Under the pieces are notes generated by a model. That model saw only the letters and a list, made by a program, of their open reading frames with translations, did not search any database and was not told the origin of the DNA. DNA of 64,000 bases from Prorocentrum cordatum. Lineage: Eukaryota. Location of the stretch: assembly GCA_963575745.1 (NCBI GenBank), contig CAUYUJ010000240.1, positions 1 through 64,000 of the forward strand, read 5' to 3'. Shown piece by piece: positions 15,301 to 62,800 of the stretch (its first letter is position 1; every line of letters starts with the position of its first letter). The translations under genes were made by a program, and so were the position numbers.

Positions 15301-15351
15301 CGCGGCGGCAGGCCGCCGTCAACCTTGTGGTAGAAGATGTCATCGTACGTG

Positions 15352-31099: not shown

Positions 31100-31132
<33 letters not shown>

Positions 31133-33280
31133 CATTTTACCCGAACGCTCAGTGTTCTCCCCAGTGCCAGGGTTTTCATGCGACGCCAGCCAATACCCCC
31201 ACTTCGTGGGGGGGCAATGCAAGCTCTACCAAACATCCACACGACTCTCGGGAACCACCCACACCCAGCTTCCCGCCCTATGACGTCAGGACACTTCACT
31301 TCGTGGCGCGCGGACGATCGTGGATACTACACTGGCGTGGAGTACACCTGGCAGGCGCGCGAACCCCGTTGCAAGAGCGTGCGAAAGTAGCTCGCGCGAG
31401 CTCATGTAACATAAATGTTGGAAAACCATTGGTTTTTTTAGGATTCGGACAGCGCGCGCGGGTGGAAATTTTGAAAAGTCGTGCAGGTGTTTTTCGAGGA
31501 CCTACGGTGCGATTCGTGTGATTTTATGATGCGCGGTGCTAAAATTCTTAAAAACCCAATGGTTTTTGGAGATTTCGGCGTGCGCGCGCGAAGAAAAAAC
31601 GAATATGTCCCGCATGGTATTATTTGACAGGGATGATGGCCCTGGCAGGTGCGCAAACGTTGTCGCAGAAGTTCGAAAAAGTTGCTCGCAAAAGCCCGTT
31701 TGACAGAATTGTTTAAAAAGTGTTGGTTTTCCTACGAATCCGCAAGAGCGCGCGGGATGAGATTTTGACAGTTTTTTATTTAAAAAACCATTGGGTTTTT
31801 GATGTTTTTATGTTGAAATCGCTCCGAAACCTAAGGTTTTGGAAGGATTTCGTCTTGCACGCGCGAATGTCCACTGTAGCTTATTTTTTGCAAGGGATTC
31901 TTGAAATTGGATTACATTTGAACAAGAAATTTCATTTTATAGTGTTTTTTGCAAGGGAAAACGGGGGGGAACAAAACAACCGGATCCGGTACTAATCCAC
32001 TTTTCTGAAGCTTTCGCGAAAAAATGATGAAAATGTAGCTGCGGCCTAGGTTTTGGAGGGGGGTCGTGTACCAGGGGTCCCAACAATAATTATTCTTTAG
32101 AAGTAATAAATGTTCAACAACAACAATCATTTTACCCGAACGCTCAGTGTTCTCACCAGTGCCAGGGTTTTCATGCGACGCGAGACAATACCCCCACTTC
32201 GTGGGGGGGCAGTTCAAGCTCTACCAAATATCCAAACGACTCTTCGCGACCACCCAAACCCAGCTTCCCGCCCTATGACGTTGGGACACTTCACTTCGTG
32301 GCGTGCGGACGACCGTGGCTACTACACTGGCGTGGGGTACACACCCACAGAACTTGGTCACTTATTCGGGGCGCGCGTGTGCCCAGCATCCTGCAATTGT
32401 GACATACAATACATGACACAGACAGACAAGAGAGAGACAGAGAGCAGACAGAGAGAGAGACAGAGAGAGCGGAGTTGGTCACATTTTTGGGGCAAGTTCC
32501 TAAGATCGTCGTGTTTTTTGTTGGTCTTGCGCGCGCGAATGTCCACTTTACTTTTTTTTGCAAGGGAGTATTGAAATTTGATTATGTTAGAACAAGAAAA
32601 AGTAGCTCGCGCGAGCTCATGTAACATAAATGTTGAAAAACCATTGGTTTTGTGGGAGTCGGACAGCGCGCGCGGGATGAAATTTGGACATTTTTTTTTG
32701 AAAAACCATTGGGTTTTTGATGTTTTTATGTTGAAATCGTTACGAAACCTAAGGTTCTGGAAGGATTTCGTCTTGCGCGCGCGAATGTCCACTTTACCTT
32801 ATTTTTTGCAAGGGATTATTGAAATTTGATTATGTTAGAACAAGAAAAAGTAGCTCGCGCGAGCTCATGTAACATAAATGTTGAAAAACCATTGGTTTTG
32901 TGGGATTCGGACAGCGCGCGCGGAAGGACATTTTGACAATTTTTTCTTAAAAAACCATTGGGTTTTTGATGTTTTTATGTTAAAATCGTTACGAAACCTA
33001 AGGTTTTGGAAGGATTTCGTCTTGCGCGCACGAATGTCCACTTTACCTTATTTTTTGCAAGGGATTCTTGCAATTTGATCAAGTAAGAACAAGAATTTTC
33101 ATTTTATGGTGTTTTTTGCAAGGGAAAACGGATTACAACAAAACAACCGGATCCGGTACCAATCGTTTTGCCTGAGACTTCCTCACGAAAATGATGAAAA
33201 TGTGGCTGCGGCCTAGGCGCGGCGGGGGGGTCGTGCACCAGGGGTCCCAACAATAATTATTCTTAAGAAGAAATAATGTT
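30118..33280. repeat. Three head-to-tail ~1-kb AT-rich units with internally shuffled sub-blocks
   Basis: Each unit opens with (CAA)n ATCATTTTACCCGAACGC (~30140, 31131, 32126) and closes with CCAGGGG(T/C)CCCAACAATAATTATTCT. Repeated AAAACCATTGG(G/T)TTTT near-palindromes and GCGCGCG tracts. Confidence 0.9.
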
Positions 33281-39121: not shown

Positions 39122-39266
39122 CCTCCTCCTCATGCTCCTGCTCCTGCTCCTCCTCCTCCTCCTCCTCCTCCTCCCTCTTTTTCCTCCTCCTCCTCCTCCT
39201 CCTCCTCCTCCCCTTTCCTCCTCCTCCCCCTCCTCCCCCTCCTCCTCCTACCAGCCCCCCTCGTCC
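39122..39266. repeat. (CCT)n microsatellite, insertion site of the giant LTR element; continues at 62322-62350
   Basis: Seen directly. Confidence 0.85.
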
Positions 39267-39608
39267 AGTCTTTCCTCTGAGAATCGGGGTAAGATGACAA
39301 AGGGATTAAGATCTCATGTTCACTCTGCTCAGGGAGAGCGGAGGCAGGATTATACATTGATAAGACAGATATCCGTTCAGCTAAACCACTCTATCAGGAA
39401 TAGGAAGGGGGGAGGAAGGCCGAGGACGGACGACGACGAATCGCCCGCGCGCCCCAGCGCGCTCCTTTTCTCTCCTGCCAGCCGAGGTCGGCTGGTTTGA
39501 GCAGTTATACAGTTGCAGAAACGCAGCATCAGTTCACGCGGACAGTTCATTGCATGCAATCTAAGTTGTGTTCTAATTGAGTATGAGGCGGAGAGGAGCA
39601 TATTTACT
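39267..39608 (-). repeat. 3' LTR (AGT...ACT termini)
   Basis: Direct repeat of 61980-62321; contains the hairpin CCAGCCGA-GG-TCGGCTGG. Confidence 0.95.
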
Positions 39609-39618
39609 CCCCCCGCGG
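39609..39618 (-). promoter_or_regulatory. Short polypurine tract (G6) before the 3' LTR
   Basis: Minus strand ...CCGCGGGGGG|AGT. Confidence 0.55.
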
Positions 39619-40026: not shown

Positions 40027-42674
40027 TTATTTCCAACCTGTGCCGCCTCTCGGCGGGAAATGATGATTATGCCCCCGCTTTGACAGCCAGGTCCAGTAAG
40101 GTAAATTGCACCATTCATCGTTATTAAGCCACGTGATCCTGTTCCGATGGAGGTGATATCCAACAAGGATTCCATTCACGTGGGTCGGGTAGGACTGGTC
40201 AGGGTCGAATGTGGAGCCGTGTCCTGCGGCGCCGCTGGCAGCATCCGAGGCAGCGCCTGCGGCGGCGCCCGCCGCCGCGGGCAGCGCAAGGCCGGCGGCG
40301 TCATCGGCGGCCGCGGCAGAAGCATCATCTATGGCTGCATGGCGCGCGCGTCGCAAATCCGACCGATCCCTCGTGTTGGGATCTTGTAGGTTAGCGTCTC
40401 CGGTCGGCACGGCTGAGCCGGCGACAGAACGTGGGGAACCAGTAGCCTACTCAGACGCCTGAGCATCTGAGATGCCAGGTCGAAGAGACGGCGTGCGAGA
40501 CAAAGGTCTTGCCTTTGGTCCAGCAGGCACACGTGGCCCCACGATCTCGGCTTCGCCGTCGTGCTCAGGGCCATTATCCCTACCGTTCATAAATTGCAGT
40601 ATACTTCTGGCAGCAGTTGCTGCAGTGACACCATATAGTCCGCATGAAGTGCGGAAAGGGCCATCTTCCTTGTCCTGAAGAACGGTGCTGGGGTCAGGAT
40701 ACTTATCCTGTAGCCAAGTTATGGCTTCTTGTATTATAGCACCGTGGTGACGGACGTCATTCTGTACTGTCCTGCCCATCTTGTGGGCCCATGTTTCTAT
40801 AATGTCGTCTGTCTCAACAGCCGCGCGAATTCGGCAGTCCAAGGCATATGCGTCGGTTCGTTTCTTTGATTCAATTTCATCCGTGCTCATCATTTCGGGA
40901 CGAATGATTCGCCCCGGGTACCAATAAAGTGGTCCTCCGATATGAAATAGCTGATTATCTCATGAATAATTGCGAAAATCCTTATGGGTCGAAGGCCCAG
41001 TTCCATATTTTGTGATGTTACTAACCAATTGTCATCCACTATTTTCTTGATGATCGCCGGGATCGCATAGTCTGCCGTTCCAGTCAGGGTAACCCTGCAG
41101 GGTGTAGTAGGGCTTATTCCCGTGTGTTCAATTATGCAATGAGCGGCAACCTCTCGAACCTCGTCCCCGAACAATCTTATTTTAATCAGACGGTCCTCAT
41201 GCTGAAAGTACACGTGTCCCTCAGGTTCGTCAAATGCGAGGAGTCCGTCAGTTATCGACGCGGCCTTCGGCCCGCTGATTACTTTGAGGTCCAAATCCAT
41301 TTGTGTCTGTTCCCGTGCCCTCGCGGCTGAGCCGGAGGCATGTCGCAGCGCGGGAATTATAAGACGATGGTCCCGACACATGCCGACCCGTCTTGCAACG
41401 GAGTGAGAACTGCGAGTCGGTCGCGCTCTAAAATTGTTCTCCCAGGCGACCAGTAACCTCGCAGGAGGGTTGTCGTTGTTGGCGTTGTTTCCAGTATCTT
41501 CAGGAAATACGCCGAACCATGACATGTCAAACTGCATGGCATCATCTACTGTGGCAAGTGTAGGAACAAAGAGGTTTGCTCTCCTCATTTTGTTGAACCA
41601 TTGTGCCCAGCCAGTCCTAGGTGTGATCAAGTCATCTGGTTCATCAGGCCAGTGACATGCTTGTAGTGCCGGGCAGGATCTGGGGCGGGCGTACTGATCA
41701 AAACCAGTCGCCCACAATTTTGGCCACCATTTGTTAATGGGCGGGGTTCGCCTGTGTACATTTGTGGCCGAGTGTTCTTGCCACGATATAAATCTCTTGA
41801 CCAGAGGCCTTGAGTATTCAAAGAAAGGAGCATGTCGCGCCGGAGGCTGAGCCTCGGCGTTCTCTGGGATCCAAGCTGGAAAGTTTCCCTGCTGACTGTT
41901 GCCAAATATTGTGCCAGCAGCCGCCATTGTGGCAAAGCTGGTTTCCCATTGTCGCTCCTGCTGATTGTTGTTGGCGACGTTTTTCGCAACGTTAGCAGAA
42001 GCTCTCCCTTGTCTCCTTATCCGCGCCTCCATGTATACACGACGATCCCATGACAGAGATCCTTCGTCCTCCACAATTATCCAAATACCATGTGCCTCAA
42101 GGGATTGCGGGATAGTTTTGTACTTCCATGTCTGGGTGATGTAATCATGTGAGATCCTATATTTATATCGGATTGGGCAATTACAGACGGGACAATTGGC
42201 AAAACCCGTCCTCACCCAGTGGTAACGGAAGCAAAGGAATCTCCCATCGTCATCCCACGGGGTAGATAGAATTCGATCTTGAATCGAGCTATCCAATCTT
42301 GGTTCGTGTTCCCAATTAATAATCAGTCTCTCGTCTGTATTAACCCAGGCAATAATCGACGCGTTGTCGAAGATGACCTCGTGCGAAGATAATTCGCGGT
42401 CAAAGAGTACCGTCCAGCGCATCTGATTCATCTGCCTCACGAGCGAGACGGCTTTGTCGATGTCTGTGAATCTCGGTACCTCCCGGGGCACCAATGTCCC
42501 GTCTGGGCATACTCTGTACGAGAAGCGGGTGAGTACTCTGCCGGTGAAAACAAGGATCATATCCCATTGTTCATGATGCTTGAGGTTGGGGAGACATGGC
42601 CAGAGGTGGCGTATGTCTTCCACGTTCAAGGTGCCCACCTTTGGCGGCTTCCCATCCCGAGCCTGGTTGCCCAT
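40027..42674 (-). CDS. Distal cargo ORFs (40890-42674, 40447-40893, 40027-40410); CxxC ribbon, otherwise unknown
   Basis: Abutting co-oriented ORFs up to ~400 nt from the PPT; CPVCNCP motif. Confidence 0.55.
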
Positions 42675-43300
42675 AGATGCTACGGTTTTTATGGTGGGCG
42701 CTTGTCCATATCTCCTTTGGCTTAGCCACGGAGGAAAATCCGAGGGTTAGACATAGTTGGGCAGTTGTGTGCCGGAAGCAAACGCAATGAATCGTAACCT
42801 ACGGCATGACACAGCCCAGAATTGCCCTTTGGAAAGCAAACATTTCCACTCGTAGACTCCAAAAATGCCTGTAGGCTCGTAATCTGTAGAAGAGATCCGC
42901 GACTCCTGACTTGGCCAGGGCCGCACGGGACATACATTCTTTCAATCGAAGCGGTAAACGTTGAATGCCCCTGACATGCCCTATAGAATATCGATATGGG
43001 CATTTCTCTTCCATTGATCTCTTGTAGAGATCTTTTATTGTGTTTGTCCCACAGAGCGTGGATTAGTGTTCCAGCAATATTGGGGCTGTCTTTGGGGGAA
43101 ATCCCCAGAACATCGGTCGTCCCTGCCGGCAACGCAGCTAAGCTGTGCGCAGCCAAGGCGTACCATTGGAAAGTAAAACCGTCATCATATAACTCCTGCA
43201 CCAGGTCCCCAAAATAGACCCAGCCTCCTGACGATCTAGCATAATCCGAACAGTGCCTCGCGATGTATACAGCACATTGGCCTATTATTTATTTTGGCCA
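42440..43300 (-). pseudogene. Tpt1/KptA (NAD-dependent RNA 2'-phosphotransferase)-like domain, split by frameshifts
   Basis: Manual translation upstream of ORF 42722-43201 gives VYIARH...GGWVYFGDLV, followed by HNKRSLQ and the signature YRACQGHS. The C-lobe-like DMILVF...YRVCPDGTLV...IDKAV lies at the start of ORF 40890-42674. Confidence 0.7.
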
Positions 43301-44458
43301 AATCATCCGCTCGGAAACTCAGGCCGCTCCAGGTGCCCGAACTGCCTAAGACAGCCGGGTTTTCACCGTCATCTTCTCCAACTAAAAGTGGCCGCAAGCA
43401 CGAATAGGCGCCTGGAGAAAATCCATCAGGACAATCATCGGACTGAAATTCGGCTCTCATATAATCCCTTGCATACGCGAAAGATCCGTCGTCTTGATTG
43501 AGACCTGCCAATATAGCAAATATTGGATCTTCCACAAATTCTGCCATGTATCTAAGCGTAATTCCCGATTGTTTACGGATGGCTTCGACGTTAGGTGGTA
43601 CAGGGCCCGTAATATGGGCGTCCTGGAGCATCTGCTTTAGAGGCCCAGGCGTAGCCTGAAGTATGCGATGGCGTTCGTCTGTTGTCGCATACAATCGTTT
43701 CTCCTTAAATTCAGCAGCATGCCCCACCGTTACATCTCGGTCCCCATCGTAAGGGTCCCTATACTGCGGCCGTCCCTGCCTTTTATCTGGAGTAGGCGGA
43801 AGGCGCAATCTTCGGAACATATTCGTAGACGCCGGTCCATGTGGAAGAGCTTCATCATCCATTGACTCCAGAAATTGAGGATCTTTCTCGCGCGGATACT
43901 TTGAGCAAGAGTCCTCCGATTCTGCGTCCATTTCTTGTACTTCCGGGTGGCCTGAGGCCCCCGGTGGCGACGGGGCTCGGCCTTTAGGAACGTGTTTTGT
44001 CCCATCATCGTTAATATGTGATGCTCCCTCGTCCGACGGCACTTGCGTCGGACTCTCGATTGCTCATCTTGCGCATCACGGCGGCTCTCTCGTTCCGCTC
44101 CGGCTGAGCCGGGCGGAAGGGCAAGAGGAGTAGGCACTCTGACCATGCTCCCAGAACCTTCTGCCTTTTTACGTCGTGACCATCGAGGTCCGTCCGCTAT
44201 CATCGGAGTGCGCACAAAATTGCTGTCCACCTTCAAAATTTTTTTTCGACGATAGCATTTGCAAAATCATTCCACGCGGGGGAGTGTGTGTTTAGCTGCT
44301 CCAGCTCATCTGGTATACTTATATCGTAAATGGTTTCGCTGCCTTGATGTACGATGCAGCAGCAACTCTGAACCTTTTCATCAGAGCAGTGTTGTCCCGG
44401 GCGTCATCTGCTCTCGATTGTAGCCCTCGCAAGTGGTGAAAGAAGTCTTTTCCATTTC

Positions 44459-46177
44459 TCAGCGCTGAACTGGATTTTGGGCATTCAAAATACAAGCACG
44501 AGACATATTAATTGTCATTATGATGGTAGTAAAATCATCATCTCCTTCCAAGTCAGGTGAATGCAGAGATGAATGGCCCCCGTCCGACTGAGCCGTGGGG
44601 CTAACGTCGCGCATGTTCGGTACATCGTCGTTTCCATCTCTTTCAGGAACACCAGCATCGTCAGAGGCCGCCTTCGCCTCTGTAGGTGTAGCATGCGCAG
44701 ACCGGGATCGTTCACCCGCGGGACCGCCATCGCCACGAGGCGGGTCGTCCCGGCGCCTGGTCCAACTGGGTGCCTGCTTGGAAGGTGCTTGCTTAGAGCG
44801 AAGCTCATTTGTCTGAGGACTCCGAGTAACAGACGAGGAGCCAGAAACGTTGGCCCCGGCGAATAAATTTAATTCTGACGGAAGATCAGCAACGCTCGGC
44901 CTCCAAGGTCTGCTACCAACTGCATCTGAGCCACTCGACTTAGCCGGTGGCTGGGCAGTCATAGAAGTATCGGGATCTCCATCATACCGAGGCATCTTCG
45001 CTGGCGGTTGACCTAAGTTCTCCGGCCTGGGATCGGTCCTCGGGGGGGGAGCCTTCTCGGTTGAAACCTCTTTCGCAGGTGGAGCACGCGTCTGCTTAGT
45101 AACATTCGGCCGCTGTTCCGGAGGACTCGATGGAATGCGAATCGCTGGCGGAGCCTTCTCGGCAGGAATCTCTTTCGGTCCACCAGGAGGAGGAGGAACA
45201 GGGGGCCGACTAGCAGCCCTCGGGGGCGGTGCCTTGTAGGCCCTCTCGGGCTTCGCAGGCGCCCTTCCAAGATCAGGGAAGTCCTTTTTATCAATTGAAA
45301 ACGGAATGCCGGGCGGCTTAGCCGCCGGCAGCACCTTTTCGCCCCCCTCAGCTGCCCTCTCTTTCTCCTTTGCAATCTGCTCGACCAACTGAACTGATCT
45401 ATCCGAGGCCTCGCCCCTCTGTATGGGGTGAATCTTGGTCAGCCTGACTCCTTTGTCTTGGAGCCACGGCCAAATATCATCATATTTTTCTTCGTATGTT
45501 TCGCCTGCTCCCCTCAAATCGGGGCGCGCCCCCTTCTGCCATTCGAAGGAAGTCAAGCCAGGGACCCGAGCCTTTCGAGCATCGCGGACTTTGTCCGTGC
45601 GCTGGGTCCGTTCCGGGGCTCGGCGCCTTTCAAACTCAAAGTCCACCTCCAGGTTCCATCCTTTATCTCTGGCAATATGCAGCAAATGCGCCCATCCTTG
45701 AGTAAGCCACGCGGCTGCTGCAGTCCAACGATAGAGCCTCAACTCGTATAAAGTGTCAGTCTCTGGATTGCTCACGTATTGAGTCGGTGATCCTCTATTG
45801 GATTTGGTCGTCTTGGCATAGTAAACAATCTCGGCCGTGACCCAAATGCCGTCTCCAAAGGTCTCCTCCACAATGGAGTAGGTGGTGCGAGTGCTGGGAT
45901 TGTCAGTACATGGGAACGAGTACACCCCAACCGCATGTGTCTTCACGCTTCCGCCGTATCGAGGATTTGACGGAAGCAATTGATGTCCCTCCAAAATAGC
46001 ATGACATGTTGACACTGACGTGCCATGCGACTGCTTTGTCCAGCTGGTGGATGGGTCTGAGACCTCCGCAAGCTTATCTTTTGTCAGGAAGAAAGGCAGC
46101 GCTAATTCGACGCAATGGGCTTTGCCCACGTTGTGGGATGTCAACCTCAAATCTGCCCAATTAAAGCGATCGGCCAC
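44459..46177 (-). CDS. Cargo ORF with N-terminal PARP-like (H-Y-x) ADP-ribosyltransferase domain and Pro-rich tail
   Basis: WTKQSHGT...AILEGHQLLPS...GVYSFP...TTYS...QYVSNP (nt ~45720-46050). Confidence 0.6.
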   Translation of the reverse strand: MADRFNWADLRLTSHNVGKAHCVELALPFFLTKDKLAEVSDPSTSWTKQSHGTSVSTCHAILEGHQLLPSNPRYGGSVKTHAVGVYSFPCTDNPSTRTTYSIVEETFGDGIWVTAEIVYYAKTTKSNRGSPTQYVSNPETDTLYELRLYRWTAAAAWLTQGWAHLLHIARDKGWNLEVDFEFERRRAPERTQRTDKVRDARKARVPGLTSFEWQKGARPDLRGAGETYEEKYDDIWPWLQDKGVRLTKIHPIQRGEASDRSVQLVEQIAKEKERAAEGGEKVLPAAKPPGIPFSIDKKDFPDLGRAPAKPERAYKAPPPRAASRPPVPPPPGGPKEIPAEKAPPAIRIPSSPPEQRPNVTKQTRAPPAKEVSTEKAPPPRTDPRPENLGQPPAKMPRYDGDPDTSMTAQPPAKSSGSDAVGSRPWRPSVADLPSELNLFAGANVSGSSSVTRSPQTNELRSKQAPSKQAPSWTRRRDDPPRGDGGPAGERSRSAHATPTEAKAASDDAGVPERDGNDDVPNMRDVSPTAQSDGGHSSLHSPDLEGDDDFTTIIMTINMSRACILNAQNPVQR

Positions 46178-47360
46178 GGAGGCATTCAGCGTTCGTATCG
46201 ACCTGTCCGCTTTGACCCTGAAGAAGCGAGCTCAGTTCGGCACTAGATAGTTCTTGGTCATCGGTGGAAATCTCGTCGTTGGCTGGAGCATCTGGTAGGC
46301 AAGCCACACTGGGCTGCTCGCATCTTTTAGAATCGTTTTCCGTTCCGAGCTGTGAGGTGGATCTCTTCCCTCGGCGACCTCAGCAGCTCGCCCCTCTTCG
46401 CCTGGGTATACATTGGACGGCATCATGCCCCGGTGAAGTTTGTCGCTGGCGACCGTTAATGGGCAGAGCACATTACGACGAGCGACCTCATCCGTCTTTG
46501 CATCTTTTTTTCTGCAGATTCTTTATCTGCTGATACTCCATATGGATCGGCCACAAACATTCTTCCTCTCCAGGGCATCCTTCTTTCGCCCCCCTTGGAA
46601 ACTTGCTCTTTTGCTACACTAATCAAAGACAACCTACCCTCGGGGCAGTTCTCCCGAATGGTCCGTCAGCTGTTTCCCCAGGGGGTTCGATATCCTTGAT
46701 ATTGGTCGCAGGAGCCAACGGAGGGGTGCGCGGCGACTGAGCCGTCATTGCGCTAGAACCAGAGCCCGTTCCGGCTGGGCCGACGGGTTTGGCCTTGTCA
46801 GTTGCGGCAACAATGCCGGGCTGGCCGGTCAAAACTTTAGTATATACAGGGGCCGCAGTGTCACCTGGCGCTGCACTGCTCGCCGCAACGGCTCAGCCGC
46901 TCGGTATCGCCGTTGGCGATGCTTTGTTGAGTTCCTTGAGTACGGCACGCATTGGCTCATCATCCTGGACTCCCTCGGTCGCTGGTCTCTGGGTCTCCCC
47001 CCTCGGTGGCATTCCAGGACGGAAGACTTCTCCTCGGGGCAAAAAGTAAGCATCATCTTTCCGTAGGAAGAAGTCCTCATAGACACCTCCCCTTTTAAGG
47101 AAGCCTTTAGATTCATTTGAATGGAGCGAGTATCTAGCACTGCCTCCAGTTCCGTTCGAAACGACAGGGAAGCGTTCGTCGGTCAGTCTTTCCTTGAATG
47201 GGAGCGCGCCAAGTATCGACCTTGGAATGCTACCTTCTGTGGGGGACCAGTCCTGCCAATGCATGATAAGATCTTGGACGTTCGCCTCCTGTTGGGCGTA
47301 CTAGTCCTCCCTCACCAGACAGGTTATGCGGCCTTCCCCGACGGCTGAGCCGCAGGCAGG

Positions 47361-48392
47361 CTAACAGAAAAACAGCACAGCCAGTTTGGCCAGTTTAATC
47401 ATGTATTCGACACACAATTCCGCGGCAAGGACCTTTCGGGATTTTCCCCCGTCAAACACTTGATAGTCATCATGGGAAGCACAGAAATGGAAAGCATCCT
47501 CATTGCGGTGCCTAAGCTGGCGGCATAGGCTGACACCGTCGAGGATCATTACTCTGGGGAACAATCCTATCGTTTTAAAGTGTTCAATCCGACGGTTCAT
47601 TCTGGCTCGGACCATAGTGGCAACATCGCCCCACATCGGGCCGACGCCGTCCTCACCTATTTGCCAAAACGTCGAGTCCCCGCCGACGTACATTATGTCA
47701 GTAATCCCCTGTTGGGACCGTTTCATTATGTCGTCGATCAAATCCACGGCGTCCTTTATCATCTCCCTGATGCTCCCTGCGAAAGTAAACGGGTTGTCAG
47801 TTCTTTTGACTCCACTGCCTACTCCGTTCAATTTGCCCGATTGGTCAACAATGTCGTTGAGATTCCAGAAAGTGAAGCGAATTGGGGTGTGGGTCCCTTC
47901 ATTATAATACCATTGTTTGCCCCACTGAAAGTTCGCGGAGTCGGCGGCAATACCGTTGAGTGGTGCTCCACTCTTGGCCGACTGTGCGCTTCCAAATGCC
48001 GGATTTCGCAGGTGATATTCAGGCATAAGGCTCGGCTTAGGCGCCCCTGGTGCGTCCTTGAACGCAATTGTGGAGTCAGACACGATATGTACGGAACATG
48101 ACCAACTACGATAAGTCCCATTCTTCATCTGGGTCAGAGGCCGGAAGAAGTCCGTCACAGATTTCCCCGTGGACGACATAGTGGCGAGGTCTTCTCCGGT
48201 GAATGGAATCCACGAGTGACCATGAACCTCGGCGATCTTTGTAATCGCCTGACATTTCTCGGCAAAATCCATGTTACCTGACCAGAATCTCAATTTTGGG
48301 TCCGTGACTTCCATATAAAGGTCCAGGATTTCGCCCACTATTACTCGCCATCCATCCCGGGGGGGCGGAACACGCCCAAAGCCCCCTTTCAC
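47361..48392 (-). CDS. Cargo ORF with SGNH/GDSL-hydrolase-like domain
   Basis: VHIVSDS (block I), AKSGA (II), WNLND (III) and DAFHF (V), in the correct order and with plausible spacing. Confidence 0.6.
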   Translation of the reverse strand: MKGGFGRVPPPRDGWRVIVGEILDLYMEVTDPKLRFWSGNMDFAEKCQAITKIAEVHGHSWIPFTGEDLATMSSTGKSVTDFFRPLTQMKNGTYRSWSCSVHIVSDSTIAFKDAPGAPKPSLMPEYHLRNPAFGSAQSAKSGAPLNGIAADSANFQWGKQWYYNEGTHTPIRFTFWNLNDIVDQSGKLNGVGSGVKRTDNPFTFAGSIREMIKDAVDLIDDIMKRSQQGITDIMYVGGDSTFWQIGEDGVGPMWGDVATMVRARMNRRIEHFKTIGLFPRVMILDGVSLCRQLRHRNEDAFHFCASHDDYQVFDGGKSRKVLAAELCVEYMIKLAKLAVLFFC

Positions 48393-49888
48393 GCGAAGGT
48401 ACTCAAGGACGTTCCACGGGCCGCGACCGATGTGAGGTTTGTCTTCGGGCTCGGGTTCTGACGCTGCGGGCCCCGAGTCCGGCGGTCCACCTCCCCCTCC
48501 CCCCCCTGTAAGGGGGGGTCGTCTCGTGAGGGGAACCCGCCAGATGGTGGTTGATCCCCATCATCGCCGGATGAGCCGTGAGGGGGAGCGCCACCATTGC
48601 CTCCGCTGGCTAAGCCAGGAGGATTCTCAATGTTGGGAGGTTGGCCGGCAGGTGCCCCGCCGGCCGCCTGTTCCCCAGTCCCATGGTCATCCAATGATGG
48701 CTGATATTGGCCCTCGACTGCTGATTGGCATTCCTCGGCGATCACGTCGTCGGGCGCCTCCGTTGCAGTCTTCGGCTTCTTTTGCGGCGAGTCCTCATCA
48801 GCATCCGGGCTGAGTCCGTCTTCGGCAAGCCATTTCTCACAATTCTGTGGCCTCTTCCAGGGGCGTTGTCTTTTCCTCCAGTGCACTGCCTGCTTGGGCG
48901 CGTCCTCGAAGTACGCCGCCTTTGCGGCGGCAGTAAGGGCTTCCTCGACCACGCGCACGGGTGCACTGTATTTTCCTTTGACCACTGGAAAAGCGAACAT
49001 CGTTCCCCACCCTTCCCCAACGGCTGAGCCGCGGGGAGGCTTTCGAGGGGAAGGCCTCCAAATATCAATCCAGACCTTCTGGGAGCTTTTTTCCCGGTGG
49101 TCCGCCACTGGCACACTCGCATAACTGCCCCAGTGGGTCTCATGCCGAACGGCTGGGCCGACAGTGGGGCCAAACACTTCTCCCGGCTCTAGCGTCCGCA
49201 TTATACCACGAAAGCTCTCTTCGGGGCTTTCCGTGTACACCCTACTGATCAGCTTCGTCTTTTCATCAGGGTACGTTTGGAGGAACGTTCCCACGGGGAT
49301 TTTGGCAACGTCAGGAGGGGCACAATCGAAACGGCAAGTGTCCTTCCGCTCAAACATAGTCCAATGTACGGTCCACGGGTCTTGGGAAATCTGGGAGTAG
49401 AAACGCTGGAATATCGTCTGAGACGTTGTTTCCAGGTCCGCCCTCAATGCAGTCACGACGGCGTCATTTCTCGTGTAAAGTATGTCGTTCTTCCACATCG
49501 TGTAGCGCCAACCCCGGCCCTTTGACGGCGCCAATGACATGGTTCCGTCTTTGGGTCCCGCACGGGACCACTCCCTCAGTTTATCAGGGAGGCACTTGAA
49601 GACTTCTTTATTTCTCCATGGTTCGACGTCTTCTACATTGGGATCAATCACTTTCTTTGAGCGAGCATTGTTTTGAGGGGCAGTTTCCATGTCAGCATCA
49701 TTTTCAAATATAATGTCATTTGGGCTGAACTGTTCATGCCCTGTCCGATCCGGCTGAGCCGGTGGGCAAGCCATCCCGCTCGGCTGAGCCGGCGTTGCGG
49801 CTTTCCGAATTGTGGCGAGGACAGCATTATTGTAATCCTTTTCCTCTCTGCCCTTGTCAACAACAACGTCCGAATCAATTTCATCCAC
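48389..49888 (-). CDS. Cargo ORF, unknown function (499 aa; aromatic-rich core with disordered tail)
   Basis: Long co-oriented ORF inside the LTR element; overlaps the next ORF by 4 nt. Confidence 0.6.
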   Translation of the reverse strand: MDEIDSDVVVDKGREEKDYNNAVLATIRKAATPAQPSGMACPPAQPDRTGHEQFSPNDIIFENDADMETAPQNNARSKKVIDPNVEDVEPWRNKEVFKCLPDKLREWSRAGPKDGTMSLAPSKGRGWRYTMWKNDILYTRNDAVVTALRADLETTSQTIFQRFYSQISQDPWTVHWTMFERKDTCRFDCAPPDVAKIPVGTFLQTYPDEKTKLISRVYTESPEESFRGIMRTLEPGEVFGPTVGPAVRHETHWGSYASVPVADHREKSSQKVWIDIWRPSPRKPPRGSAVGEGWGTMFAFPVVKGKYSAPVRVVEEALTAAAKAAYFEDAPKQAVHWRKRQRPWKRPQNCEKWLAEDGLSPDADEDSPQKKPKTATEAPDDVIAEECQSAVEGQYQPSLDDHGTGEQAAGGAPAGQPPNIENPPGLASGGNGGAPPHGSSGDDGDQPPSGGFPSRDDPPLQGGEGEVDRRTRGPQRQNPSPKTNLTSVAARGTSLSTFA

Positions 49889-49947
49889 GATGTCGTCAGA
49901 ATGGATTGAGATCGCGTCATCACCCAGTGGTCCGTCCGCCTACTTCT

Positions 49948-50830
49948 TCAGCGGACGACGCATGGGTTCAGTCGTCGGTATCTCCGGCGCGCGGGAACCG
50001 CGGCAAGCGAGATTCGAGCAGTCGCGGCAAGGCAACCGCTCGCCTCTAGGGGGGGCGGTCGCGGGGCAGCCCGCGCAGGCTGTTGAGCCGAAACGGCAGC
50101 GGCGCATATAGGATTGGGAAATGAGGTAGGGCGACGACGAGACGACCCACCTCTCTCTGCGGCGGTGGCGACGGCAAAATGAACTTGCTTGGCAAATTCA
50201 TCGGTGTAATCTTCAGCGCTCTTACACCCTCGCCCCCTAGCCTCAACATGCTCATGTGTGCCATCACATCTACGCTCTAACCCCTCCGCAACAAACGAAG
50301 AGGCGGTGGCAATCTCCCAGGGCTTTTTCATGAAATTGCCCTTGCTATCCTTCAATCCGCACGCGCGCCCGCGCAACGCCGCCTCGGCAAATCCCAACTC
50401 TCGAAGAAAACTCTTTTCCTGAGGGTCTCTCCAATAATTACATTGGGTAGGCCATTCGATACATACAACGCCCCCCGCTTTGTGCACAGCACGGGCAATC
50501 TCACGGAAATTCCAAAATAGATAACGGAAATCAGTTCTAATGCCCCGAAATTGGCGCATGGCCCTGTGCTTTCCGGCACGGAAATAATGCGCCTCGTTCG
50601 CATACTGCCAAGGGGAGCCTCCTGTACACGGCATGGGGCCCCACAACGTGATATGTTTCCCCTTAAACGCAGCTGTGCCGTTGAGCGCTATTTTGAATCC
50701 CTCATCCGTCCTCATGTCTTCTTCCTCGGTGTATCGAACCACTTTACATGAGTTGTCAACGAAATTCTTCGGGTCTCCTATGCTACTTTGGGGGCCGCAA
50801 CAGTACTCCAATAAAAACCTTTCCCCGGTC
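49948..50830 (-). CDS. C5-cytosine-DNA-methyltransferase-like domain downstream of RNase H
   Basis: LLEYCCGPQS (motif I-like), LWGPMPCTGGS (catalytic PC), VCIEWP (motif VI-like), CGL...KKPW, CDGTHEH...G...AEDYT (motif IX/X-like). Confidence 0.65.
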
Positions 50831-51679
50831 CACTGAGTGGCCGGGAAGCAATCGTCTCGGATTCAAAAATTCTGTGTGTCCCGTCCATTTGTTGAGGCAA
50901 TAATCACCGTCGCTAGAATCGCCATCTGAGTCATAATCACATGGGTGATGATATCTGCTTTCTTCGTCACGCCAATTATCGGTGCGATCTATCGTCAAAC
51001 CTTGTTGGGAGTTGACGGCATGTGTGCGACGTTGATCATCGAGCTTATCAAGCTCGACGGGACAATCCCCGATTGTCGGCATAAATGTGACAATTCTCGG
51101 AACATAATGATGTCGTGTCAAATTCTGTCCTTGTCTCATCCATTCATCCCTTTTGTCAGAGAAGTTGGCAGCCACCGCAGAGTGCGGATTGTGAGGCGGG
51201 CGATCGTCGTTAGAAGCAGCCTCCCTGTTTTCAGGTCTCAGGGAAGGCTCTGATTCGCTTTCACTGTCCGATATTCCAAACATGGTTTTCGTCTCACGAT
51301 CGGAGCTTCTTTTTGTTGCGTTTTCAATCGCTTTCGTTTTCTCGGAGCTTCTGCTGCAACACTCTTTGCCCATTCGAGGAGTGACATTACCCGCAACATC
51401 AGCGGAGCTGACTGCATTCTTCGTCTTCAATAATCCCTCGGCTTGGCCGGGGGCAGCCACAACGGGTTTGCCTTTGTTGGGGCGCTTTTTCGGTTTGTTT
51501 GACTTTCTGCTAGGTATGGTAGCTCCTCTCCGCAAGGCCGAACTAGGGCCCGGGCGGGGCTTGAGAACCCCAGAGGGTTTGAGGGGAAGTCCGTCAGAAA
51601 ACATTGAATCCAGATCATCTTGGCGCCGCTTAGCGGCCCAGCACTTAGGCGTCACTATGTTGACGAGGTATAACACTTT

Positions 51680-53640
51680 GACCCATGCCATTGGGTCAAC
51701 GAATCGTTTTGTTCCAGTATCTGCAGCCTCGTTTTGCGTTCTTTCTGATTGTAATTGAACAAGGCCACGAGACAATTGTTCGGACACAGCTGCTGCATCG
51801 ATTCATTACGTTCTTGGTAGGTGCATCAGCTTCATTGACCCGCCTGCCTTGATGACTTTGCAAACTGCTTGGTTATCTCCCAAGAATAAACATCGCGCAG
51901 ATCTATCCAGCAGGATCTCCCACAGCGGTAATGCCGCAAGCAGCTCCTTGCGCAACGCAAGGTCGGCCGCAACGATCTCGGCCTCAAGTGTACTATGAGA
52001 TGCGCATGTTTGTCTTTGCGAACTCATCGACTGTCCTGCCCGTGTATATGGACCCCATATTGCTTGGTAGCTAGCGCTCGTGCTCCTGTGCGTTCGGGTG
52101 TCACTCGCCAGATCTGCATCAGAGTATTGTTTTAACAGGGCGCCCTCCTTTTCTATCACCCACCCACGAGGTCATACGATAATGAGATGTACATTTTATG
52201 TAACATATGAGGCGGAAGGTCCATGTCCTGTTGTTCTGTCCATTTTGTGATGCAACTGGCAGTTTGACACACGGCACGGAGTAAGTCGTATCTTGCCATC
52301 CTAGCCCCGTAAAGTATGTTCATCAACACTTTTGCTGCAATTGGCTGAAGCACTCCCGACTGAGTCGGTGGCCCAGGGTCATCAGGGCTAGCTGCTGCGG
52401 CATCGAGGCCAATCACCTCTATTTCTTGATCAGGAGGGCTGGTGTCAACGTTGATCTGTAACGCTGATGCTATAGCCTCCTCAGCTGGGGAGTAAATCTC
52501 TCCTCTGGGGCCGCCCTGCCCGTCTTCTAAGTCAGTAAGTTCTGGACCGAACGGGGTACCCGCGGCCGGATATGCGGCCGGGTCTGCGTCCGTCAATTGA
52601 GCGTATAAGGTAACGCAGGAATCGAACAACTCTGTCATATCGTATTCGATGACTTTTACTAGTTTCGGTTCTATCGGCTGGTATGGCTCGGTCATCTGAG
52701 ATGCCGAGTCCCCCCCCCGTTTCCTCCTCACTACTCTCGTCTGTGACGGAGGCGTTTTTCTTAACTATTGGAGGAGGCGGGTCGAGTACCGTAGGTAACT
52801 CTCCGTGCCACTCAATTGTCTGAGTTGATAATCTATGCTCGCATCCTAAATATCGTCCAACAGCTGTTGGAGGATATATTTCTATGCCCCTAGGGCAATT
52901 GTTCGAAGGCTCTTGAAGTAAATTCCATCCCTGGGCCAGCTTGTCGGCAGGTCCTGACAATGCGAAATCATCGACACAACTGAACAAGAAAATTTGCAAT
53001 TCTTTGTTGAAGTAACAGCTTCGCCACGGACTACATTTCACAAAACCTTTCGCCGTGACATGTCCCTCGCAATGCTGTTCCCAGTGCCCGCCCAAAATCG
53101 GGATGTCCGTGCAGAGATAAGTACACAGGACATACGGGGTTTCTCATATTGGACCATGCTTTGGGCCATTCGTCACGAGGCAAGAAAACCCAAGTAGGAG
53201 TGCCTCCCAACTTTGGCTGCGTGTAAGCTTGCCGAGCGTCAGCTTGTTCGATGTTATGGCCTTCAAACAGCCCGTCAGTATCGGCTGCTTTGCTGGCCTG
53301 CATTGTCGCGGGATTGCTGGGAAGTTCCTGAAATAGTGCCACATCTTTGTTTTGATCTCTAACACTCGAACCGTCAAAGACCACCCGACCTTTGTGCTTG
53401 CGGTCTTTGTGTCCCAGTGGTAACTCTGAGTTCTTTTCAACAAAGATCGCAAATAAACGGCCAAAATGAGCCGTCTTCCCTGTGAGTTCGGCAACAATTC
53501 CCTAACACCATCTTCGATCCACGTGACAATGTCGCGCAGTCTGCCCCATTCTTTTCTCAGGGCAGCTTGAGCGTCTTTGTTTGCCTTTGCCTCGTCTTTT
53601 GAGACAGATCTGGCGACAGCGGCATCCATGCGATTGCATT
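51680..53640 (-). pseudogene. Copia-type reverse transcriptase plus RNase H
   Basis: RT motifs KGRVVFDG, QADARQAYTQ, LSLHGHPD, SCVDDF (YVDD-like), RYLGCEH, LYGARMARYDL. RNase H motifs YSDADLA...RSTS, SHSTLEAEIVA, GDNQA, AADTGTK. Confidence 0.92.
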
Positions 53641-54999: not shown

Positions 55000-57570
55000 C
55001 TGTACACTTGGTCAGACTTCTCGATCGTGGGTTGTTTTCCCTCTGGAGTGCGTCCTGACTCCATATTCAGTCCGTCCAATTGTCTCAGAGGTATTACGTA
55101 ACTGTCAGGTCCAACCAATCCCCCCGCTTTGTGCACATACCCCAAGTATATCCCTGTAATCATCGTTGCTCCAGTCTTGGCAGTGCGGAAGCGGGATTCA
55201 GGCGGAGGCACATAACGGATCAGTGATCCGAAGGGAAGAAGCGGAGCATTGAATTGGCATCCGAAGCGCCTTTCCCAGCTGGGCTGCCCTTCAGCAGGGG
55301 TCCTTGCATTGTAGCATCAGCAGAAATATCGAACTGCATAGGTCCAACATGGCGGTGGAAGACCAGCCTGCATGAGTAAGGCTCTAGCACCCATCTGCAC
55401 CGCGCCGTTCGCGCGCTCGGCGACAGCATTTTGTTTCTTGTTTCCTGGGGTGGTAGGATCATGGGCAATATTGAGCTCGCAACATGCCCTAGCGAGCTCT
55501 CTTGCACCATCTGTATAACAATATTCTAACTTTTTCCTCCGGGGCTCTAAGGTTTACTAAGAAGTTACAAACATGAACCGCAGACTTGTCGTGTACACCC
55601 TGAGCGGCAAGAACATCTGTAGCTCGGTCGCGAAAAGTCACACACGCGGTCTCATCGTGGAGTCCCCGCGAGAGTTCATCCATCGCAAACCAATGATCCA
55701 TCGTCGTCAGTTGCCCGAACGAAGTGGGGTTAGCGTATGGGCGAGGAACCTTTAGCCCTTTGTTCTGCGCTTTGCGCTGTTGTTTTCTGATAGCTTTGGC
55801 CCAATTGCACACTGGGCAATGGTTCTTAGGAGTATGAGTTAGAAGGTGCGGTAGGGAGGCTGCAGCCTTTTTGAGCCGCTCGGCAAGGGTCTCCGACACC
55901 TCAACTTCCGCAACGTCTGGGTCTAAATCTGGCGGTGCGTCGACGTCGACCAAGTCGACACCGTCAGCGTCTCCAGCTTCACCCTCCTTGGGTCCTGGGG
56001 CCGCGTTGCGCGCATCGGAGTCCAGTCCTCCACTTGCTTCGTGCGGGAGGTATCCTGAAACTCCACATCCAAAATGGCATCTATATGCGGCAGCACAAGC
56101 CTCGGCTTTGCCGGGCTGCTCGTCGAATGGACCGACGGCTTGACCGTGGTCGGGCAAAGCTGAGAGACTATTGGAGGCAGCAGTACCGGTTGGCGTCCGA
56201 TTCCAACCGCATTCGCTGGCCAACTGAAGCGAATAGTAGAAGTAGGTGATGGTATCCGCAGAGTCTATCGAAGACGGGAAAACGGGCGCGATCTCGGTCG
56301 GCCGCCCATCAGCGTAGCGGCGGGTACCAATCAGCTCATGCGTGTGCAGGTCTATGGTTGCGCGAGTCTGGACAGCGTGGGGCGGAGGGCCTCCCGCAGA
56401 TTCCACGTTGTCCAGGAATGCCTTGGCGCCCGGCGTCACGCAGCGCCACCGCTCGAGGGGCTCGCTCCTTCCGGCGGCAGCTGCGCACATCCACTGACCC
56501 AGCGCCTCTTTGCCTGATAGGGTAAAGTATGGTATCTTGCCCTCAAGGGCTAGGTCCACTCTTTGGCCGTTGGGCAACAGTTGGCAGGGCCTTTGGCCAG
56601 CTGGCCAAAAGAAACTAAAGCCGTGATCCATGCACCGCTCTCCTACCGAGATCACGCACGGGGTCTCCGGCATGACTAAAGCGTTAAAACTACCACCCTT
56701 AAATTTGGGACACGCGATGCGAACTGAACCGAGGGCCTTAGACTCCCCCCCGGCAGTGTTCAGAGTGATCGATTGCGGCAGCTTTCGCATCAATGTCATT
56801 GCACCGGCGCTCCTACTGTATTTTTCCGCATTTAGGTTGTACCCGCACCCGGTATCTATAATGAAGCTCAATGCCCCCAGATACGCAGCGTCTTTGTCTG
56901 TGCATCCAGCAGCGGCTGAGCCGCGCGGGCTTTCTTTCCCCTCTTCGTCTTTCAACCAGAGATGCCAGACGTGATCTTGCAGGTCTGATGCTCTGATCAA
57001 AGCCTCTGCGACAGACGCCCTCGACTGTATCGACATCTGTCGGCGCATCCCCCCTGGGAACTTCCATCTGTCTTTGCTACTTGAAGACAACTCTTTCAAG
57101 TCGTGGCGACGGGCCTTTCTCCAAGTGATAGTCGGCTCCTCAGTAGAGGGGTGAAAACGGACACGGAGATTGCATCGGTTGCTATCCCGATGTCGCATGC
57201 AACTCTTACTAGGGGGAACGCACCAGTACTTTTTGATCGCGTCCCGAGAAAGAGGGTGCAGGAAATTCGCAAGGACATTGACGAGTCTCTCGACCTCTTC
57301 CCTGCCGTCCTGTTGAAACTCACCTTTGGAGGTATCCCAATAGTCTCCTCCGTCGGCACTAGAGGCAATAGCCAAAACATTAAGGCCGTTTTGTTTTTGC
57401 CCTGGGAAGCCCCGGAATAATGGGGCGGGGCACGCGACGGCACCCAAGCTGATTGAATCAGTGGGTCTCTTCCAGCCCCCCCGTTTTCTACTCAACCGAC
57501 GCATGCTTCGCCACGTCTGCCGAACGAGGACGACAAGAAAGAAGACCATTAACAAAATTATGTCTGTCAT
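55000..57570 (-). pseudogene. Aspartic protease plus integrase
   Basis: Protease FIIDTGCG, LNTAGG, TPCVISVGERC. IN zinc finger HLLTH...HCPVC, then TMDH and RDRAT. After a frameshift: YTDGAREL...QNAVAERANG...AGLPPPCWTYA. Confidence 0.9.
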
Positions 57571-57612: not shown

Positions 57613-59593
57613 TCACGTAACTGGATGACCTGGGGTGGTCTTGGCGAACCAGCATTCTCTCCCGCGTGAGCACTTTCCCGTTTCTCTGTAGGAGCGACAG
57701 ACCATGTCTTTGCCTTTGCCACCGCCTTTGTTTTTCCCTCCATCATTTTTGCGTTTGTCGGAATCAGCGCTAGCGGCTCTGGAGCCACCATTACTTCCCG
57801 TCGAAGAGATATTGGCAGCAGCAGCAGCATTGGCCTGTTTGGATGTACGCTCATATCCCAAAGATTGTCAAGCGTCAAGTTTCGCTTGTTCCCACTTGTC
57901 ACGCTTCAGCTTCTCAGCATCGGTTAGCCTTCTATGGGCCTTGTGACATCCGTCTTCGGATCCTCGACAATTCGTGGGGTCTCGGGAGTATGCGTAACGC
58001 GGAATATTACTGTCTTTCCCACGTGACTGACTTCTATTATTTTGCTGTCCTCCTTTCCCTCGGTTTCCAGTCGGGGTCTGGGATCGGCCCTGCCCCTTTC
58101 GGCCCCTGTCCTTCGATCTACCTCTAAGGTTCTTATCCTGGGCAGGGGCGGCGCTGGTCTTCCGTCCCGCACTCGGCTGAGCCGGTGCGGCGTTCTTGGG
58201 CTTCTTGTGATTGAAGGGACAGCCTTTTCCTGCGCGCGGGCAAGTTTCGCCCTTGGTAACGTATCTGCAAGTGGTTTCGCCCTTGGTTTTCGCCCCTTTC
58301 ATGACATCCGAGGATTGTCCCAACTTAGTGGCAATCTCTGCCGGGGCGGCTTTATTGCCTGCATTCCTCCGATTGTCATTGCCTCCGCCTCCGCCGAATC
58401 GTGCTTGTCTGGCACGTTGGTCTAAGGTTTCCTCATGCACGCAGATGTTCCAGTCTTCTTTTTCTCGCAACATCACTCCTTCAATCTGCTCCATCAGCCA
58501 TTCGTGAGTTTTGACACCTTGTCCCGTTCTGTCTTTCGACAAGTCATATAACTTACATACAAAATCCAGTTTGTTCGGCTTTCTGCATTGTTCAAGGAAG
58601 TACATGAATCGAGGCCCTCATCTCGTCGGACGGAGGCTTGGCGCCATAAAGCTGTTGATACACGTATGTCCATTCATTGTAGAAATGATACAGGTCAGCA
58701 TCAGGCTCGTGCGGGTCTATCTTCACTTTGAAGAGGTCGCGCGAAATGCGATGTTGTCCCAACTCCGACCTTACCTAACACCAGTGACAAATAGCCCGCA
58801 CCATCTCGCGTCCAGTCATGAGCCTTCCCTCGGCCTGGGCGCTGAATTCCACGCGAGTAACCTGTTGAAGGAAATGGGTATGATGAGGAGGCTGATATCG
58901 ACTCTTTCGCATCTTGTTGAACTTCTCGATAAGATTCGCTGCGATCATAAGGCCGAGACGCTGGAATCGTCCAACATATTTGAGTTGCTCATCCTCCACG
59001 GCTGGATCCATAGCCTCGGCAATCCAGTGCTGTGCTGCCTGGCTCTCGGGCGATGACCCAGCGATGGCGCGTATTGCGTGCATTTTCCACTCGCGAATGT
59101 TCGTAATGTCAGGGATGTCCAACAAATCAATTTTCTGTTTGTTACCGACCTGTCTCCACTGATCTAACGGCGTGCTCTCGTCAATTACTACCGAGTCGCG
59201 CGGTCCGCCGGGGCCTTGAGGCCCCCTGCGTCCACCCCCACCATCAGAGGGGTCTGACCCCCCTGGACTTCCCGGAGGCGATCCTCGTGGTCCTCTGCCA
59301 CGATCATCTTCGTGCGAAGATGCGATCTCGGTGTTGGGAGCGTCGCTCTTGTCGTCATCTTCTCCGCCCTGTCCTGCATTGCCCGACGACTTAGTCGCCG
59401 TCGTTCCATTAGGGCCGTCTCCATAGGTTGTGCGGAGATTGGCAAGAGCGTTATGTTCGTTAGGTCCAGTTAGCCTCATCCCTGCAGGGAGTCCACTTTC
59501 AGCGGTGCTCGGCTTAGCCAGACCTTCAATGGCAGGTCCTGGGACAGAATGTTGATGCAACAACGGCCCCACGGGGTTCTCTTGCGAAAACAA
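57613..59593 (-). pseudogene. Gag-like region with CCCH-type zinc fingers
   Basis: Helical core IREWKMHAIRAIAGSS...GREMVRAICHW; CRYVTKGETCPRAGKGCPFNH; CRSYRETGKCSRGRECWF. Split by stops and frameshifts. Confidence 0.7.
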
Positions 59594-61593: not shown

Positions 61594-61959
61594 CCTTGAA
61601 GAGAATGCACCTGGTCAGGGCCTTGGCGTGACGCCTTCTCGCCCGTGAGGGTCGGGGGTTTGCTCACGATCACCTATCGGAGCCCCTACTGTGGGTATGT
61701 CTACCGACATTTCGGTTATCCCATCAGTACTTCTCCCCCTCATGACCCGGTCGGCGATATGTGAAGGAGGGATTCGGTCTTGAATAGGACCGATTCTATA
61801 TGTATCGTGTCCATCATGTTGTTCAACGCGCCAATCTGCGCTTCTCGAGATATTAGACACGATATTAGTATTATCGTAGCTCTCTCCCGCAGCGACTGAG
61901 TCGCGGGGCACGACTGAAAGCTCTTCATTTGCATCTAATGGCCCCGCGTCGACTGAGTC

Positions 61960-61979
61960 GCGCGTTTCGGCTGATAACC
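61960..61979 (-). promoter_or_regulatory. Primer-binding site of the half-tRNA type
   Basis: GGTTATCAGCCGAAACGCGC abuts the 5' LTR. Its complement reads TTCGG-CT GAT AA-CC, a tRNA anticodon arm ending at AACC, as in the Drosophila copia PBS GGTTATGGGCCCAG. Confidence 0.65.
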
Positions 61980-62321
61980 AGTCTTTCCTCGGAGAATCGG
62001 GGTAAGATGAAAAAGGAATTAAGATCTCATGTTGACTCTGCTCAGGGAGAGCGGAGGCAGGATGAGACATTGATAAGACAGATATCCGTTAAGCTAAACC
62101 ACTCTATCAGGAATAGGAAGGGAGGAGGAATGCCGAGGACGGACGACGACGAATCGCCCGTGCGCCCCAGCGCGCTCCTTTTCTCTCCTGCCAGCCGAGG
62201 TCGGCTGGTTTGAGCAGTTATACAGCTGCAGAAACGCAGCATCAGTTCACGCGGACAGTTCATTGCATGCAATCTAAGTTATGTTCTAATTGAGTATGAG
62301 GCGGAGAGGAGCATATTTACT
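61980..62321 (-). repeat. 5' LTR (AGT...ACT termini)
   Basis: Direct repeat of 39267-39608. Confidence 0.95.
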
Positions 62322-62800
62322 CGTCCTCCTCCTCCGCTGCCGCCTCCTCCCGCTTCATTCACATTTTCCGCGTCCTCCTTTGCCGATGGAGACCGCCGCG
62401 CCCGTTGACCTGCCGCGCCCCTGCTGCGAGTTCGAGGCTACGTCGTCGAACGAGCTCCATAGACGTTGTACCACTCATCTTGATGAGGCTTCCATCAACG
62501 TCCCCGGCTGAGGATGTGCAAGGCTCTCTGAATCTTCTTACATTCATCCCCATCTTCATCATCAATATGACATCGACACCACCGACGCCACTGGTACGAC
62601 GCCGACGACGCCGGCACCACCGTTACCACACCGAAGCCGTCAGAACAACCCCGCCTCCATTACGACGCCGACGCCGCCGGCGCCGCCATTACGAGACCGA
62701 CGCCGCCGTTGCGACGCCGCCGCCGTTACGACACCGACGCTGCCGTTACGACGATCTGGGAATTTCCTGAAGGGTCGCGATCATGACATCGTCTCTGCAG

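Follow-up and report, generated by a model that had tools for sequence, protein, structure and literature searches.

A probable distant relative of the Tpt1/KptA RNA lobe in an accessory protein of a decayed copia-like retrotransposon from Prorocentrum cordatum

Tpt1/KptA is a cellular enzyme of tRNA splicing and RNA repair that, beyond fungi and plants, has yet to be given a clear role, and some retrotransposons of the Ty1/copia type carry extra open reading frames (ORFs), such as the env-like ORFs of plant Sireviruses. The present study concerns a stretch of 64,000 nucleotides of Prorocentrum cordatum DNA (assembly GCA_963575745.1, contig CAUYUJ010000240.1, positions 1 to 64,000 of the forward strand; this whole stretch is hereafter called the window), in which a 23-kb copia-like element bounded by long terminal repeats (LTRs) carries an accessory gene of approximately 990 codons. 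The copy of the element present in the window is decayed, and the accessory protein probably contains a distant homologue of the RNA lobe of Tpt1/KptA. In the passages of PMC10622864 that deal with the architecture of the enzyme, Tpt1 is composed of an RNA lobe at its N terminus and an NAD+ lobe at its C terminus, and the tetrad of A. pernix Tpt1 is Arg14-His15-Arg63-Arg116, of which the first three residues belong to the RNA lobe and hold the junction 2'- and 3'-phosphates.

The matched part of the family described here is the RNA-lobe part that holds these first three tetrad residues. The likeness to Tpt1/KptA would comprise an N-terminal lobe of the winged-helix type with Arg-His ending its first helix, Gly-Trp shortly after Arg-His, and Arg-Ala-x-Gln-Gly-His-Ser in the final strand; the order of these elements is shared. 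The family differs from Tpt1/KptA by an insert of approximately 35–40 residues, predicted as two helices, which separates the third helix from the strand with RAxQGHS, by the embedding of the domain in a protein of approximately 990 residues with a helical N-terminal domain, and by being encoded by a retrotransposon rather than by a cellular gene. The parts of the accessory gene, all on the minus strand, are the following:

40890..43862, minus strand: accessory gene, approximately 990 codons once read through (tblastn, relatives, translation)
43275..43290, minus strand: first frameshift, four extra bases of an AATA repeat (tblastn, DNA, run contigs)
42962..43330, minus strand: predicted winged helix resembling the Tpt1 RNA lobe, with Arg-His, Gly-Gly-Trp and Arg-Ala-Cys-Gln-Gly-His-Ser (hhalign with shuffles, AlphaFold model of a relative, fold search)
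42773..42961, minus strand: conserved stretch after QGHS, with IERMYVP, LLQIT in place of the family LLHIT, and LRLLP (conservation, hhalign, model confidence)
42743..42748, minus strand: second frameshift, one base missing (tblastn, DNA, run contigs)

A stop-to-stop frame of 188 codons (42722–43288, minus strand) contains the motifs ARH (43253–43261), GGWV (43217–43228), NKR (43031–43039) and YRACQGHS (42962–42985). The preliminary description of this DNA had such motifs, in Tpt1 order, hidden across frameshifts; the motifs are real and the gene is frameshifted, but all four share this single frame and the frameshifts flank it. When an intact relative, P0013 (398 aa), was used as the tblastn query, the alignment ran through frame −3 at 43694–43305, frame −1 at 43285–42743 and again frame −3 at 42746–42495. 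The four extra bases near 43285 are incompatible with the reading of the relatives, one base is missing near 42743–42748, and the RNA-lobe-like domain starts in the upstream frame and spans the first of these two lesions. P0013 itself is one uninterrupted frame through both junctions. Reading then proceeds into a frame of 618 codons (40890–42746), as in P0013, P0004 and P0006, in agreement with the earlier remark on continuation into the downstream ORF, and the full gene begins with a Met (43862) that aligns with the start of P0007 and ends with the stop at 40890–40892.

The contigs of four public runs were compared over 42400–43900. Each run yielded contigs in which the four bases at 43285 are absent (3, 1, 1 and 1 contigs) and contigs that have a single additional base at 42743, 42746 or 42748 (4, 2, 1 and 2 contigs). 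In run X1, 611 contigs of which map onto the examined stretch, those of the undamaged form are a minority by depth (44/291 at 43285). It had been suggested that the frame be repaired from sister copies, and intact relatives do exist, as do run contigs lacking the first frameshift and run contigs lacking the second; an undamaged copy would therefore be read as a single long frame. At the same time, the window copy is dead; it is unable to make the protein, and it has two frameshifts, a Gln in place of the His of the family motif LLHxT, and a pol split between frames.

The protein family is repeated and conserved. In a collection of 5.8 billion proteins, 12 relatives of the 188-aa frame were recovered at E ≤ 0.01 (43–86% identity); 11 of them are from the green alga Pyramimonas sp., as named by EukProt, and one is an unnamed ENA protein. 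Searching 1.84 billion representatives with a profile recovered 75 at E ≤ 0.001, including 48 at ≤ 1e-10; most are fragments, and those that bear a name are Pyramimonas. One longer intact form, P0013, was recovered. In an 85-row family alignment, the Arg of RH is kept in 22/30 relatives (Gln in 4, Gly in 3) and the His in 28/31; the residues of Gly-Gly-Trp are kept in 26/29, 27/29 and 25/29, respectively. The Arg of RAxQGHS is kept in 36/41, and its Gln, Gly, His and Ser in 30/38, 35/38, 30/38 and 29/39. The KR of the window frame had initially been matched to the KKRF of Tpt1, an assignment that is abandoned here: it falls in the variable insert, at a position that is not conserved and has no majority residue, and is best taken as chance. 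Two metagenome loci (L003 and L004) were also rejected as chance pattern matches, one on a bacterial contig, next to a gyrase-like gene, the other matching out of frame within a gene that is unrelated. A viral scan with a single protein revealed no related locus.

The kinship with Tpt1/KptA was examined by profile–profile comparison with a KptA alignment that held 25 of 120 relatives among those listed, with 58–74% identity to the E. coli kptA query. A local hhalign match of 47–48 columns was obtained (probability 64–77%, P 6.6e-5 to 2.1e-5), which sets the family helix ending in RH, plus GGW, onto KptA SKFLSxVLRH ... GW. This match scored 39.8, a value reached by none of 100 shuffles of the KptA columns (mean 13.7, standard deviation 3.0, maximum 25.8), and reversed profiles gave 22.4 and 22.9. 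Once the family alignment was trimmed to begin just before QGHS, which kept the first match from contributing, a second one emerged that pairs FfRAcQGHS with IRAxQGHS over 15 columns (score 31.6, P 2.8e-4); none of 60 shuffles scored above 19.7. The two matches are collinear and were scored separately. They set the Arg-His of the family on that of KptA and RAcQGHS, with what would be the third tetrad Arg, on RAxQGHS, and these residues are present in the window copy.

The fold was predicted as well. AlphaFold on the window frame plus 10 close relatives gave a mean predicted local distance difference test (pLDDT) score of 38.9 and was unusable; AlphaFold2 without templates, applied to P0013 with 85 sequences, gave a mean of 68.9, with values of 81–97 over residues 61–230, 85–96 over residues 125–237, and below 50 for most of residues 238–398. 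The model consists of a confidently folded helical N-terminal domain of approximately 125 residues, without a clear match in the PDB, followed by a predicted winged helix with the fold of the N-terminal RNA lobe. The structure modelling proposed in the preliminary description was thereby borne out for the RNA-lobe-like winged helix, which is confident, but not for the supposed C-lobe, which is below 50.

The P0013 model was then compared by VIA-align with all 48,161 PDB representatives, blind to the hypothesis. Tpt1/KptA chains (Runella, mouse) and entry 9ld3 took ranks 1, 2 and 8 of 48,161, and when 288 of the 295 weak Foldseek candidates were aligned in the same way, two further Tpt1/KptA chains took ranks 1 and 2 (next row, 3.9). 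The Tpt1/KptA entries compared were 7kw9, 9ld3/9ldi, 8tfz and 7yw2. Their sequence identities to the model were the highest in the list (20–22% for the four best Tpt1/KptA chains, 14% for mouse Tpt1), whereas most other chains had 3–18%; among the latter are generic winged helices, namely ESCRT-II VPS22/VPS25, the C-terminal domains of ScpA and Scc1, Z-alpha and the C-terminal domain of RPA32, which have no RH, GW or RAxQGHS. In the alignment with 8tfz_A, model residue 130 pairs with chain residue 1, and a first helix without gaps would set Arg143-His144 of P0013 on Arg14-His15. Foldseek against the BFVD viral structures gave nothing at E ≤ 0.001, and ESM Atlas gave no usable match for P0013 residues 115–335.

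Several results weigh against this kinship. The Pfam PTS_2-RNA hidden Markov model (HMM; PF01885, curated cut-off 26 bits), the use of which as a check had been proposed at the outset, assigned 160.9 bits to the positive control E. coli kptA and was silent on the window frame (E ≤ 10) and on all 49 relatives; by PF01885's own HMM, the family is not a member. NCBIfam gave no Tpt1 match among the same 49 relatives, no Tpt1 was found in PDB sequence searches (phmmer with the frame, and three family profiles), and Foldseek against the PDB gave neither a match at E ≤ 0.001 nor, in the rows listed, any Tpt1. An HMM of KptA scored no higher than 9.2 and 8.8 bits on family members, to be read beside 6.7 bits for the best of 850 shuffled sequences and 2.1 for the best reversed sequence. 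Note that Tpt1 was chosen as the hhalign partner because of the motifs, so that the P values given above refer to one comparison; multiplied by approximately 25,000 Pfam families, they would become borderline and not significant alone. The placement of Arg-His-Arg on Tpt1 is derived from alignment rather than from residue-level superposition, and the first Arg is replaced by Gln or Gly in 7/30 relatives.

These points leave room for a domain that binds nucleic acids through a common winged helix and is not specifically akin to Tpt1, in which RH, GW and QGHS would be due to coincidence or convergence. Such a domain would go unnoticed by every family or PDB sequence profile for Tpt1, as was the case here, and a comparison partner picked after the motifs had been seen favours it too. 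It is, however, hard to reconcile with two collinear profile matches that each exceed every shuffle (0/100 and 0/60), with the ranks of Tpt1/KptA and 9ld3 in a search that was blind to the hypothesis, and with the two more Tpt1/KptA chains at the head of the 288 candidates, and we regard it as quite improbable. The likeness to Tpt1 appears real but moderate in strength, and the protein is at most a putative enzyme. The original designation of the gene as Tpt1/KptA-like is retained for the N-terminal part, which resembles the Tpt1 RNA lobe by profile–profile comparison and fold search, but not in the sense of a match to PTS_2-RNA. With no sequence match in Pfam, NCBIfam or the PDB, the family would be an uncatalogued one.

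Under the preferred reading, that of a distant RNA-lobe homologue, the middle of the accessory protein would be a winged helix related to the N-terminal lobe of Tpt1/KptA, which would keep three of the four tetrad residues (Arg-His and the Arg of RAxQGHS) and also the buried Trp. The module, in sister copies that are intact, would most likely grip a phosphate-bearing nucleotide of the element RNA, of the primer or of a cDNA intermediate, and it may bind a nucleotide flipped out of the RNA, as the Tpt1 lobe does, in the service of element replication. The healing of a half-tRNA primer and the capping of ends, both mentioned in the preliminary description, are speculation.

The region after QGHS is conserved in the family, with the blocks IERMYVPYDPG, LLHxT (His in 29/35 and Thr in 21/34 relatives), G-x-V-x-FP, SGLC and DY-x-LLRLLP, and is followed by a Pro-rich spacer. 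It occupies the place expected of an NAD+ lobe, and a catalytic half could be neither demonstrated nor dismissed by the profile comparisons and the model. The C-lobe-like segment reported earlier was not recovered: when everything up to and including QGHS was removed from both alignments, hhalign against the NAD+ lobe of KptA gave a score of 10.5 (P 0.46) and hence no NAD+-lobe likeness, the shuffle controls (60 shuffles) having a mean of 11.6 and a maximum of 17.9, and the model is not confident here. The remark that the HGT motif is not clearly retained was correct, as the window copy reads LLQIT, with Gln where the relatives have His.

It is conceivable, if doubtful, that intact copies encode a full two-lobed, NAD+-dependent enzyme of the Tpt1 type, the NAD+ lobe of which (ADP-ribosyltransferase fold) has diverged beyond sequence recognition, and which would strip 2'-phosphates from RNA or attach ADP-ribose to phosphorylated ends of the element RNA, primer or cDNA. 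Whatever supports the RNA lobe supports this enzyme as well, and the post-QGHS stretch is conserved to the same degree as that lobe. Moreover, LLHxT follows QGHS at about the spacing of LYHGT in Tpt1, onto which a very permissive hhalign run puts it without confidence, and the low-confidence model shows a strand, a helix and a strand after QGHS, in the order expected at the start of the ADP-ribosyltransferase fold. Yet the hhalign score against the NAD+ lobe lies under the shuffle mean, pLDDT is below 50 over residues 238–398, a PDB profile search of the post-QGHS part returned no ADP-ribosyltransferase or Tpt1 chain, no counterpart of the distal fourth Arg can be assigned in the family, and the long Pro-rich spacer breaks the region.

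Downstream of this spacer, a second conserved block (42081–42746, minus strand) reads RF-x-YR...DGTLV and then a Cys-rich TPW...CPxC; it is common to P0042, P0053 and P0065 and is without a family match. A PDB phmmer search with the 618-codon frame gave nothing relevant.

A family that retains the RNA lobe with which Tpt1 grips phosphates, and that a 23-kb copia-like retrotransposon multiplies, would provide a new setting in which to probe what the lobe recognises. If the RNA lobe stands alone, it would be reusable as a stand-alone RNA-recognition module; if an NAD+ lobe is present, this would be the first retroelement-borne enzyme of such a type and would suggest that 2'-phosphate chemistry or the modification of ends takes part in the life cycle of a retrotransposon. 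Literature searches combining Tpt1, KptA or PTS_2-RNA with transposons or retrotransposons disclosed neither a retroelement-borne Tpt1 nor an activity of this type in any retroelement, as judged by the titles and abstracts listed, and those on Pyramimonas and retrotransposons disclosed no such element, by title or abstract among the papers listed.

The gene had been described as retrotransposon cargo, which is a fair description, and it does lie within an LTR-flanked copia-like element, between RNase H and the 3' LTR. Application of blastn revealed a 345-bp direct repeat (39265–39609 and 61978–62322, 96.5% identical, 22,713 bp apart), and all the long frames inside the element are on the minus strand, the direction in which the element reads. 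Its features other than the accessory gene are as follows:

62321..62325 (upstream copy) and 39261–39265 (downstream copy), minus strand: 5-bp target-site duplication GACGA (read directly)
61979..62320, minus strand: 5' LTR (blastn, ends read)
61959..61980, minus strand: primer-binding-site-like stretch that starts with TGG and adjoins the 5' LTR (read by eye)
57640..58269, minus strand: Gag-like region bearing three zinc knuckles of the CCCH type (E 6.2e-4 with Pfam zf-CCCH, 20.1 bits, cut-off 20.5; motifs read)
55404..56865, minus strand: putative protease, with DTG (56836–56865), and putative integrase, with HHCC (55792–55848) and D, D, E (55404–55707) (by eye; Pfam rve_3, E 0.054)
51809..53399, minus strand: putative copia-type reverse transcriptase (RT) and RNase H, split between frames (three-frame translation)
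49951–50862, 48392–49939, 47364–48560 and 44462–46231, minus strand: four long frames between pol and the accessory gene (304, 516, 399 and 590 codons)
39266..39607, minus strand: 3' LTR (blastn, ends read)

When the LTR is taken as GTAAAT...GACTG, GACGA abuts both of its outer ends; this is a target-site duplication, and the 23-kb unit was therefore inserted as one piece. The element shares with Ty1/copia the LTRs, the 5-bp target duplication and a putative TGG-initiated primer-binding site, and apparently also the order of gag, protease, integrase, RT and RNase H (by eye: knuckles, protease, integrase, RT, RNase H); as in some Ty1/copia elements, pol is followed by extra coding sequence before the 3' LTR. 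The RT (53399–52958) is split over two frames, with an xVDD box at 52958–52984, and an RNase H-like stretch lies at 51809–52126; the motifs of RT and pol resemble the copia consensus. The frame split over 51809–53399 indicates, as an observation in its own right, that the whole 23-kb copy has decayed and not the accessory gene alone. No Pfam RT or RNase H match was found in the element and the best integrase match is that at E 0.054; pol may be too diverged or decayed for the Pfam RT models. A PDB phmmer search with the 707-codon pol frame gave nothing relevant, and in ESM Atlas the clusters nearest to this frame, at 0.75–0.80, were gag_pre-integrs, rve and Pol_BBD, to be read as a lead only. 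The label of retrotransposon is based on the LTRs, the duplication and the motif order, not on profile matches.

The Gag of LTR retrotransposons usually has CCHC knuckles, whereas that of the window element has CCCH ones. A further difference, from those Ty1/copia elements that carry extra ORFs, is the extent of the addition: approximately 11 kb of extra coding sequence lies between RNase H and the 3' LTR, with at least five long frames, none of a known family, and the accessory gene is the last of them. The four frames of 44462–50862 have no Pfam match, and PDB phmmer with the 304-codon frame (49951–50862) gave nothing relevant. A long Pro-rich stretch is present in the 590-codon frame (44462–46231). 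With its TGG start, the primer-binding-site-like stretch might anneal to a whole tRNA through the CCA end, which would suit it at least as well as half-tRNA priming; no tRNA gene was found within the 64-kb window.

Apart from the 23-kb element, the window contains a second, different retroelement, recognised by a Pfam RVT_1 match at 12571–13434 on the minus strand (E 2.7e-8, 34.2 bits, cut-off 29.6). This match, which lies within long minus-strand frames (8691–15512), is the sole curated RT match of the window. Finally, tandem arrays of 21-nt and 157-nt units, plus a tandem repeat of approximately 1 kb in three copies (75–95% identical), occupy 26498–27332, 29426–29740 and 30130–33239, and a direct repeat (26178–26477 and 29127–29426, 94%) is located around the tandem arrays.

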